From the IMG/VR virus record IMGVR_UViG_3300031772_008824: DNA of 11,621 bases. The stretch is one strand, 5' to 3'. Under the pieces are notes generated by a model that saw nothing but the letters and a program-made list of their open reading frames with translations, was not told the origin of the DNA and ran no database searches. A program made the position numbers and the translations under genes. Origin of the DNA: a virus. How positions within the stretch are numbered: the stretch's first letter is position 1; every line of letters begins with the position of its first letter. This document shows positions 2,059 to 2,977 of this stretch, one piece after another.

Positions 2059-2742
2059 TCATAGCTGGACCCCATCGTACGTAACGGTTACTTCCCCTCC
2101 GAGCGCGGCTGTCGTAGTTCTTGGCTCTCGCACGTCTTTGTGACAACCTATCTCGTCGTTGATGAGTTCGTAGCCCTTGTTCACGTCCCCGATCTTTGGC
2201 GAGTCTAAGCACCCACACTGGTAGATGGATCCGTTCGGTCTGACCAGTGGATCTTCGCACGGACATCCCTCGGAGGCGTCTTTGATCTTTGCTCCTCGGC
2301 CCGACGCTATGACTCCCTGCCTCGAGTCTGTGATCGTGCGGATCGACCGTAGATCTTCTGGATGCTGGCCGTGAATATCGTACGTCGGATGAACACGGAG
2401 TTCCTTCGTGAAGGCCTTGCGAACCTTCTCGTCGATCGGTTCGTGGTAGCAGTCGAGGCTAAGGTCACACCCAATCACACCCTTCTTCGCCATCTTGGCG
2501 AGAGCCAGCGCCGTGTTCGTCAGCTTCCCATTGGTGGCAAGCCAGACGTTGTCGCAGGCAGCGATTGCCTTGCCGAGGAACTCCCAGAACTTTGGGTGGA
2601 TAGTAGGTTCACCACCTCCAAGGGAGATCATCTCGTCGTTGAAGGCCAACGCCTTCTCGAAGGTGCGTAGGCTCATGTCCCTGCCCAAGGAGGTGCAGCT
2701 GTAGCAGCAGTGAGCACACTGCATATTACAGCGGCTGGTCAA
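2059..2742 (-). CDS. Radical SAM enzyme (227 aa as called) with a C-terminal Cys-rich (SPASM/twitch-like) segment. Start codon uncertain (TTG or non-canonical).
   Basis: The Cx3Cx2C motif RCNMQCAHC sits at residues 5-12 (nt ~2707-2730). The GGGEP SAM-binding glycine motif follows. C-terminal cysteines include CDLSLDC, GCPCEDP...YQCGC and GCH. The only in-frame start after the upstream stop is TTG at 2742, and the GGAGGU SD lies 17 nt away from it. Confidence 0.7.
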   Translation of the reverse strand: MTSRCNMQCAHCCYSCTSLGRDMSLRTFEKALAFNDEMISLGGGEPTIHPKFWEFLGKAIAACDNVWLATNGKLTNTALALAKMAKKGVIGCDLSLDCYHEPIDEKVRKAFTKELRVHPTYDIHGQHPEDLRSIRTITDSRQGVIASGRGAKIKDASEGCPCEDPLVRPNGSIYQCGCLDSPKIGDVNKGYELINDEIGCHKDVREPRTTTAALGGEVTVTYDGVQL

Positions 2743-2764
2743 TACTAAATACGTGGCCCACCTC

Positions 2765-2977
2765 CTACTCCTTCAGGGCGTATCCCTTGCCCTTGATGAG
2801 CTCGAACAGGCATTCCTTCCTGGATCGACCATCGTTCCAGCTCACCCGGGCGACGGGCCCACGGCACTGAGTGTGCATTGAACACACGCCGAGCGGTGTC
2901 AATTGCTCCACGATCGTGCCAATGGGCCCGTCGTTCGGGGGCTGAAGCTTCTTGCCTTCAAGGACGATCTGGTTCAT
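2765..2977 (-). CDS. Hypothetical small protein (70 aa, 3 Cys)
   Basis: ATG at 2977..2975 with a GGAAGGA SD 8 nt upstream. ATGA overlap with the stop of the upstream Zn-ribbon gene. The stop TAG is embedded in the SD of the radical-SAM gene. No recognisable motif. Confidence 0.45.
   Translation of the reverse strand: MNQIVLEGKKLQPPNDGPIGTIVEQLTPLGVCSMHTQCRGPVARVSWNDGRSRKECLFELIKGKGYALKE

Follow-up and report, generated by a model that had tools for sequence, protein, structure and literature searches.

When a viral gene keeps its catalytic motifs and has no canonical start codon that preserves its conserved N-terminus, where does translation begin? The question is raised by IMG/VR record IMGVR_UViG_3300031772_008824, an 11,621-nt stretch referred to here as the window; coordinates are window positions, and L-numbers denote the loci and assemblies that were compared. 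All genes in the window lie on the minus strand. The gene of interest encodes a radical S-adenosylmethionine (SAM) enzyme with a twitch-like C-terminal segment, and it spans 2059..2754 (231 codons, followed by a TGA stop at 2061-2059) when it is read from an ACG codon at 2752..2754; this extent follows from the open reading frame (ORF), the Pfam match, the family alignments and an AlphaFold2 (AF2) model. Our answer is that this ACG is probably the main start of translation, used as a near-cognate initiation codon under the direction of a Shine-Dalgarno (SD) sequence.

Sequence layout and family start codons

The reading frame is closed upstream by an in-frame TGA (2773..2775). From this stop the minus strand runs through AGG AGT AGG AGG TGG GCC to ACG (2754-2752), through TAT TTA GTA to TTG (2742-2740), and then through ACC AGC CGC TGT AAT ATG CAG TGT GCT CAC TGC; the translation from the stop onward is *RSRRWATYLVLTSRCNMQCAHC. 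Between the stop and TTG 2742 the frame contains no ATG, GTG or TTG, and also no CTG or ATH. The TTG at 2740..2742 (codon 5, Leu) is therefore the first canonical start codon and the rival start; the first Cys of the cluster motif follows only four codons later, and the ORF is 227 aa long from TTG as against 231 aa from ACG. The sequence GGAGGT at 2760..2765 lies 5 nt 5' of ACG and 17 nt 5' of TTG, for which it is the nearest SD, and a second SD-like sequence, AAGGAG, is located at 2773-2768. Directly upstream, a 70-aa ORF with three Cys (orf70, 2765..2977) ends in a TAG (2767-2765) that overlaps the SD, 10 nt before ACG. An earlier prediction made from this DNA (hereafter the original prediction) had pointed out the lack of a canonical start before TTG 2742, the 17-nt distance of the SD from it, and the placement of GGAGGU 5 nt before ACG 2754; our reading of the sequence agrees on each of these points.

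Public gene calls place the start elsewhere. In all three assemblies that contain the gene, the call begins at an internal ATG (Met27, 2674..2676) that has no SD upstream, and the resulting 205-aa product has lost the CX3CX2C motif (Cys9, Cys13 and Cys16; 2707..2730), where the radical SAM [4Fe-4S] cluster is bound. In the protein search, this public product (P0001) carried no precomputed Pfam domain. The full frame scores 36.1 bits for the Pfam Radical_SAM family (PF04055), above the cut-off of 29.5, and the matched region starts at YLVL, that is, before the TTG.

The protein search returned 223 relatives of about 190-245 aa. Their N-terminus is uniform, M-Y-[IL]-x-[IL]-T-x-[RK]-C-N-M-x-C-x-H-C. 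In the alignment the Met falls precisely on ACG 2754-2752, which differs from AUG by a single base; no canonical start in the window would keep this conserved N-terminus. The original prediction had regarded the short stretch before the cluster as a feature that sets the gene apart, whereas eight residues before the first cluster Cys turn out to be the norm for the whole family. With this Cys at residue 9 there is no room for alternative starts, which makes the family a clean test case.

DNA of the relatives was taken from viral contigs, metagenomes and genomes, and the codon located eight codons before the first cluster Cys was tabulated for 117 distinct loci. A canonical start is present at this position, or one or two codons upstream, in 109 of the 117 (98 ATG, 8 GTG and 3 TTG). 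The other eight loci have ACG (the window, L001 and L015), ATC (L031, L102 and L033), ATT (L038) or AGG (L162). Seven database proteins that looked truncated were checked as extra cases, and all seven prove to have their ATG or TTG where the family starts, so that the overall rate of non-canonical starts is about 8/124 (6.5%). Exact-pattern scans of IMG/VR found 28 ATG, one ACG and one ATH. On a neighbour-joining tree the eight non-canonical cases represent six independent clades, and two sister pairs are non-canonical in both members: the window and L001 (71% identity), and L033 and L162 (57% identity). L033 contains no canonical codon anywhere from the upstream stop to the first cluster Cys, and L015 and L162 have no canonical start downstream of the family position. 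In L162 (about 3980-4010) the family start is occupied by AGG, which GGAGGG precedes by 7 nt, and a canonical start is absent for 55 codons, whereas L102 reads ATT-TAT-ATC-TAT, a duplicated Ile-Tyr in which the start is ATT or ATC; the exact start is ambiguous in both.

All eight loci retain the cluster motif, the GGGEPT motif and the twitch cysteines, and this identifies them as intact genes, not pseudogenes. Tyr2, which is 99% conserved across the family, is likewise kept in all eight, and residue 2 thus appears to be under constraint at the protein level. In the AF2 model, residues 2-4 (Y2-L3-V4) form beta-strand 1 with a predicted local distance difference test score (pLDDT) of about 97; a start at TTG would remove this strand.

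The seven extra cases are also informative about annotation. Gene callers often truncate members of this family at an internal Met, either the Met of CNM or Met27, despite a good ATG or TTG start, and such mis-calls were verified in 7 of 7 cases (loci L276-L282; proteins P0028, P0034, P0041, P0061, P0074, P0102 and P0120). As a result, part of the family lacks a Radical_SAM annotation.

The original prediction had also offered a sequencing error as an explanation of the missing start. An identical protein is encoded in three assemblies, all of which read GGTGGGCC ACG TAT: L163 (ENA contig k141_1360666, 74.8 kb, 100% identical to the window), L164 (a Logan contig of SRR9617949, 99.92% identical) and L165 (JGI Ga0315291_10094928, 99.5% identical). 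These assemblies differ elsewhere by 0, 3 and 16 substitutions, and the surroundings of the ACG are unchanged. The nearest relative, represented by L001 and L002 from two different sequencing runs and samples, has 71% amino acid identity and likewise has ACG. L001 reads TGA CCT ACG TAT ATC ATG ATC ACC..., with GAGGT 5 nt before the ACG, so that the layout GAGGT-N5-ACG-TAT is the same as in the window; otherwise just 16 of the 40 nt upstream are identical, and the upstream genes are unrelated. A third lineage, L015 (47% identity), has acquired ACG independently, in the arrangement GGAGGA-N6-ACG. An ATG becomes an ACG by one transition, and errors do occur in metagenome assemblies; still, three assemblies that differ elsewhere, the separate runs of a diverged relative, and the 8 of about 124 loci without a canonical start here, with diverged sister pairs sharing the state, leave a negligible chance that a true ATG was turned into ACG by faulty sequencing or assembly or by a short-lived start-loss mutation, or that an indel masks a start further upstream. 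The recurrence of ACG across these sequences indicates instead that the codon is kept through evolution.

A strong SD is found 5-7 nt before the near-cognate codon in all eight non-canonical loci. The mean energy of the SD/anti-SD duplex is -10.8 kcal/mol in this set and -7.1 kcal/mol in the canonical set (one-sided Mann-Whitney p = 0.0023), with the GTG members intermediate (-9.9); the window has the strongest duplex of the near-cognate set, -14.7 kcal/mol. The stronger SDs fit compensation for a weak start codon. For comparison, the SD spacing in the 22 called genes of this phage is 5-14 nt and mostly 6-8. In addition, a stop codon, mostly that of the upstream ORF itself, is no more than about 10 nt away from the proposed start in all eight loci.

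Readings of the start site

The best explanation of the family alignment, the SD geometry and the recurrence of near-cognate codons in relatives is one that the original prediction had proposed, initiation at ACG 2754. In the mechanism that we envisage, a 30S subunit held by GGAGGU, or a ribosome that has just terminated at the orf70 TAG 10 nt upstream, would bring the initiator tRNA to ACG, where it would mispair only at the second base of the codon, and the codon would be read as Met. Ribosomes that end orf70 at this TAG would probably feed coupled translation of the radical SAM gene. The expected outcome is a low yield of the full-length 231-aa enzyme, with beta-strand 1 (Y2-L3-V4) kept ahead of the CX3CX2C loop. 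In Escherichia coli reporters, ACG gives low-level expression of a protein with an N-terminal Met, as identified by mass spectrometry, and of the starts annotated in the genomes surveyed by the same study, 99.95% are ATG, GTG or TTG (Hecht et al., bioRxiv 10.1101/063800). Re-initiation in coupled genes requires initiator tRNA and initiation factor (IF) 2, and it is lowered by excess IF3 (Yoo and RajBhandary 2008, PMC2268962).

Several considerations weigh against initiation at ACG. Translation table 11 does not recognize ACG as a start, and the output of ACG in E. coli reporters is about 1% of that of AUG or less. In the window, L001, L031, L038 and L102, a TTG or ATG follows in frame 2-4 codons after the family start and could yield a slightly shorter protein; in L015, a GTG precedes the family start in frame by 10 codons. 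The window and L001 are only moderately diverged (74.7% nucleotide identity, with 64% of synonymous codons identical), so that the shared ACG-TAT could be partly a matter of inheritance and not of selection. Finally, the difference in SD strength could come in part from the host lineage.

The alternative that follows most directly from these points is a start at the canonical TTG 2742, giving a 227-aa protein that begins MTSRCNM..., with ACG-TAT-TTA-GTA as an untranslated leader left behind by a lost ATG. TTG is the sole table-11 start codon in the open frame before the first cluster Cys, comparable codons occur in relatives (ATG at codon 4 in L001 and L031, TTG at codon 5 in L038 and at codon 3 in L102), and a downstream rescue start of this kind would allow a start-loss mutation to persist. 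The SD, however, is 17 nt from the TTG, outside the range of 5-14 nt used by this phage, and the supposed rescue codons differ in position from lineage to lineage and are the usual Leu or Met codons of a conserved strand. A rescue codon is entirely absent from L033, and in L015 and L162 none follows the family start; moreover, the near-universal Tyr2, present in every near-cognate locus, and the modelled strand formed by residues 2-4 would both lie in the leader. We consider a TTG start unlikely. A gene that is decaying or silent, with the enzyme no longer made in this lineage, is a quite improbable explanation: the loss of an ATG is a classic first step of pseudogenization, and the gene is an accessory one in a variable neighbourhood, yet the 231-codon frame and every invariant residue are intact in both the window and L001 despite 29% amino acid divergence, the other near-cognate loci are intact as well, and a strong SD still stands at the correct distance.

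Programmed recoding, which the original prediction had also put forward, would join the enzyme to an upstream product through a +1 frameshift from orf70 (or from a GTG inside the SD) or through stop readthrough, producing a fusion protein. The end of orf70 within the SD (AAG GAG TAG) loosely resembles the prfB shift site, and in L001 only TGA CCT separates the radical SAM gene from the upstream gene, which shares its frame. No frameshift or readthrough layout is shared, however: the frame relation to the upstream gene varies among the window, L001, L015, L031, L033 and L038, and the upstream genes themselves are unrelated. There is no slippery re-pairing codon (GAG to AGU), none of the family proteins is extended at the N-terminus, the local RNA folds no better than shuffled sequence (z = -0.02), and the GTG at 2761-2759 lies in another frame and lacks an SD of its own. 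This leaves recoding very improbable. An Rfam scan of the window gave no match. Improbable to a still greater degree is that the mRNA is edited from ACG to AUG by C-to-U conversion, or that a phage or host factor reprograms the choice of start codon. Editing of ACG start codons to AUG is established in plant organelles, huge phages have been reported to encode translation components, and the contig of our phage has a tmRNA gene together with a gene for a protein resembling the major vault protein (MVP), whose homologues in the phage collection are confined to three uncultured records of 462-735 kb. C-to-U editing of mRNA is not known to us from bacteria or phages, however, and neither a deaminase nor an initiator-like tRNA was found in the 20-kb locus. 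The ATC, ATT and AGG loci are beyond repair by C-to-U, and thus editing cannot explain them. No phage tRNA able to read ACG as a start is present in any of the eight near-cognate loci. An alternative genetic code was ruled out, as genes here end normally in TGA or TAG.

Returning to initiation at ACG, a further step would be that near-cognate codons (ACG, ATC, ATT and possibly AGG) have been fixed repeatedly in this family and kept by selection, the weak codon serving as a throttle or as a switch sensitive to IF3 or to coupling. We advance this only tentatively, as a possibility that we would not yet bet on. The start-codon behaviour would in any case be a variant of a known phenomenon, in which a natural ACG is combined with the repeated appearance of near-cognates in one family and with SDs that compensate for them. 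In bacteria the closest parallels are infC and pcnB of E. coli, which start at AUU, one of the codons that IF3 discriminates in reporter studies (AUU, AUC, AUA, CUG and ACG): there, too, a one-mismatch neighbour of AUG stands behind a good SD and low output is expected, and the ACG described here could likewise respond to IF3 levels. In contrast to those examples, ACG is outside the annotated and table-11 starts, the gene belongs to a phage, and six independent near-cognate replacements have occurred at one fixed position within a single family. In eukaryotic viruses, ACG is the start codon of adeno-associated virus (AAV) VP2 and of the Sendai virus C' protein, both low-abundance products. The same codon would thus be used by a virus for the same end; AAV VP2 and Sendai C', however, depend on 40S scanning and leaky initiation that set isoform ratios, whereas initiation in the phage gene would be SD-directed, probably coupled, and would give one product. 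Among the papers searched, none was relevant to natural ACG starts in phages or prokaryotes or to phage twitch radical SAM enzymes.

If selection has indeed maintained these codons, comparative evidence would here point for the first time to a bacterial virus that naturally initiates at ACG, and this codon would need to be added to the official list of bacterial start codons. Weak start codons would then be an under-appreciated means by which phages set enzyme dosage in coupled operons. Gene finders have start-codon rules hard-wired, and here the public call loses the catalytic cluster motif; if the near-cognates are genuine and selected, some phage proteins are mis-annotated or missed, and the rigid eight-residue N-terminus of this family would be a rare natural sensor of non-canonical starts that gene finders miss elsewhere.

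Enzyme class and fold

The 231-aa protein is a new member of a known superfamily, with a PF04055 match above threshold, the CX3CX2C motif, the GGGEPT motif and a partial TIM-barrel fold in the AF2 model (pLDDT 89.4). The cluster motif, C9-x3-C13-x2-C16, is 100% conserved in the 117 homologues, and GGGEPT, the SAM-binding (GGE) motif at residues 46-51 (2602..2619), is invariant in both family alignments. Toward the C-terminus, at 2143..2265, a twitch-like auxiliary-cluster segment reads C164-x-C166 ... G175 ... C180-G-C182 ... C204. Within it, C164-X10-G175-X4-C180 corresponds to the SPASM/twitch hairpin signature CX9-15GX4C and is 95-98% conserved; the same range applies to C164, C166, C180 and C182, and C204 is conserved at 84%. 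HMMER aligns this segment with the hairpin of YydG.

A profile search of PDB sequences likewise gave YydG/EpeE as the best match (3e-11), followed by GDGT-MAS, SpeY and SkfB. In the fold comparison YydG/EpeE again scored highest (13.6), ahead of SuiB (12.8), SkfB (12.8), ChlB (12.1) and BtrN (11.8), with the pyruvate formate-lyase activating enzyme (PFL-AE) at 8.1 and QueE at 6.5-7.9. The NCBIfam matches to SPASM/twitch maturases are N-terminal and below every curated cut-off. The second half of a full SPASM domain, CX2CX5CX3C, was not found after C182, where C204 is the only Cys left, and Pfam SPASM gave no match at E <= 0.01; without this half, two auxiliary clusters cannot be held. The viperin model NF038283 scored 35.9 bits against a cut-off of 180 and covered residues 11-120 only, and the match to the pVip hidden Markov model (HMM) was limited to residues 4-111. 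The combination expected of NrdG and PFL-activating enzymes, a family profile or fold match together with a glycyl-radical partner, was not found, nor was that expected of QueE, a profile or fold match together with queuosine-pathway neighbours. PHROGs contains no specific family for the protein.

Its profile matches and modelled fold place the protein among the twitch-type radical SAM enzymes, of which it is a compact example, and not with NrdG, QueE or viperin. The original prediction of a Cys-rich, twitch/SPASM-like C-terminal domain is borne out by the C164-X10-G175-X4-C180 hairpin and by the leading fold matches (YydG/EpeE, SuiB, SkfB and BtrN); of the profiles that it named, Radical_SAM and the twitch hairpin were found, while Pfam SPASM was not. 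Its further statement that the protein is not a standard NrdG or QueE agrees with a fold comparison that places the protein nearer to the twitch enzymes. The catalytic cycle would begin with reductive cleavage of SAM at the N-terminal [4Fe-4S] cluster to give a 5'-deoxyadenosyl radical, and a second Fe-S cluster is predicted to be held by C164, C166, C180 and C182, possibly with C204, five conserved Cys being available. Neither a RiPP (ribosomally synthesized and post-translationally modified peptide) recognition element (RRE) nor a dedicated precursor peptide was found in the neighbourhood, and the eight residues before the first cluster Cys leave no room for an N-terminal RRE. The enzyme is therefore more likely to act on a small molecule, on a nucleotide or on the side chain of a protein than on a dedicated precursor peptide. 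By analogy, the enzyme might carry out oxidative chemistry of the BtrN or anSME type with the help of its auxiliary cluster.

Compared with the known twitch enzymes BtrN (250 aa), SpeY, SkfB and YydG/EpeE, the phage family is shorter (187-231 aa), has eight residues before the first cluster Cys and an unusual CxC...CGC...C pattern, lacks an RRE or leader-peptide partner, and is almost confined to phages. The full SPASM maturases (anSME, CteB, SuiB, PqqE and MftC) belong to the same core-fold subfamily and share the first hairpin motif, whereas the phage enzyme lacks their CX2CX5CX3C half and is not matched by Pfam SPASM. Viperin/pVip, NrdG/PFL-AE and QueE have only the generic radical SAM core in common with it; the alignments to the pVip and viperin HMMs stay within residues 4-118. 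What emerges is an uncharacterized, very compact and almost phage-restricted twitch radical SAM enzyme.

Distribution and genomic context

An alignment-based scan of IMG/VR gave 197 matches and a scan of metagenomes 328. A single-protein scan of viral contigs found no relatives where the alignment-based query succeeded. Among genomes (one per species, 185,579 species) there were about nine full-length loci, eight in metagenome-assembled genomes and one in a Pelosinus scaffold. The family is essentially phage-restricted. Its members in cultured phages are those of four Vibrio siphophages (PG28, V-YDF132, VH2_2019 and KarBoss), annotated as 'radical SAM protein' or 'hypothetical protein', and they make both the chemistry and the start site accessible to experiment. 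Megablast of the whole window against GenBank phages gave no match.

The neighbourhood of the gene is variable. BLAST clustering of ORFs within 4 kb at 125 loci found no conserved neighbour, only antisense shadow ORFs of the radical SAM gene itself, and a Pfam scan of 126 flanking ORFs showed no family more than once. When all window proteins were compared with the related loci by tblastn, no homologue of orf70, orf139, orf68 or the MVP-like protein was found anywhere; L001 alone shares two uracil-DNA glycosylase (UDG) genes and orf131 with the window, and UDG273 has weak partial matches in two distant loci. The original prediction had suggested that the 70-aa protein is a substrate or partner of the enzyme. 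With no orf70 homologue in about 160 related loci, even in the closest relative L001, this idea has no comparative support; orf70 also has no Pfam, NCBIfam, PHROG or PADLOC match.

Genes of 7-deazaguanine synthesis (FolE, QueC and QueE) occur near family members in just 2 of about 124 loci. L276 contains, at 122-3550, a nucleoside triphosphate (NTP) transferase, FolE, QueC, the family radical SAM gene, three small ORFs and then a QueE-like radical SAM gene; in L034, FolE and QueE are nearby. This linkage is too rare for a function to be assigned and serves as a lead toward a role in nucleobase modification. A polyamine aminopropyltransferase is a neighbour in Vibrio phage PG28 only.

Within the window, orf68, orf139, orf70, the radical SAM gene and a helicase gene are tightly packed into an array that is probably coupled in translation. 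The 139-aa ORF (2974-3393, minus strand) overlaps orf70 by ATGA; it has CPNC...CERC cysteine pairs and a weak match to the TFIIS zinc ribbon (E = 0.0075, below the cut-off). The MVP-like protein (3649-6201, minus strand; 843-850 aa) matches Pfam MVP_shoulder (3e-27) and Vault_3 and has no PHROG match; in the GenBank phage collection, its full-length homologues (42% identity) are limited to the uncultured phage records LR756500, LR756501 and LR756503 (462-735 kb). Two genes of the UDG superfamily, at 6224-7045 (minus strand, 273 aa) and 9739-10416 (minus strand, 225 aa), lie in one replication region. Both, together with the 131-aa ORF at 9306-9701, are common to L001, where their order relative to the radical SAM gene is different.

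A transfer-messenger RNA (tmRNA) gene was identified by ARAGORN at L163 13414-13786, about 740 nt beyond window position 1, with the tag AKDNTGAFAAPARMVA*; it is located in a 1-kb stretch without a called protein gene and would be a tmRNA encoded by the phage itself, adjoining the helicase module. At the other end, pieces of a multisubunit RNA polymerase occupy window 10413-11576 (minus strand) and continue at L163 1-2264: a protein resembling the beta subunit, with an Rpb2_6 domain and a called length of 622 aa on the full contig, and, upstream of it, a beta'-like Rpb1_2 fragment. Together with the tmRNA and the MVP-like gene, these polymerase pieces suggest that the 74.8-kb contig may belong to a much larger phage genome.

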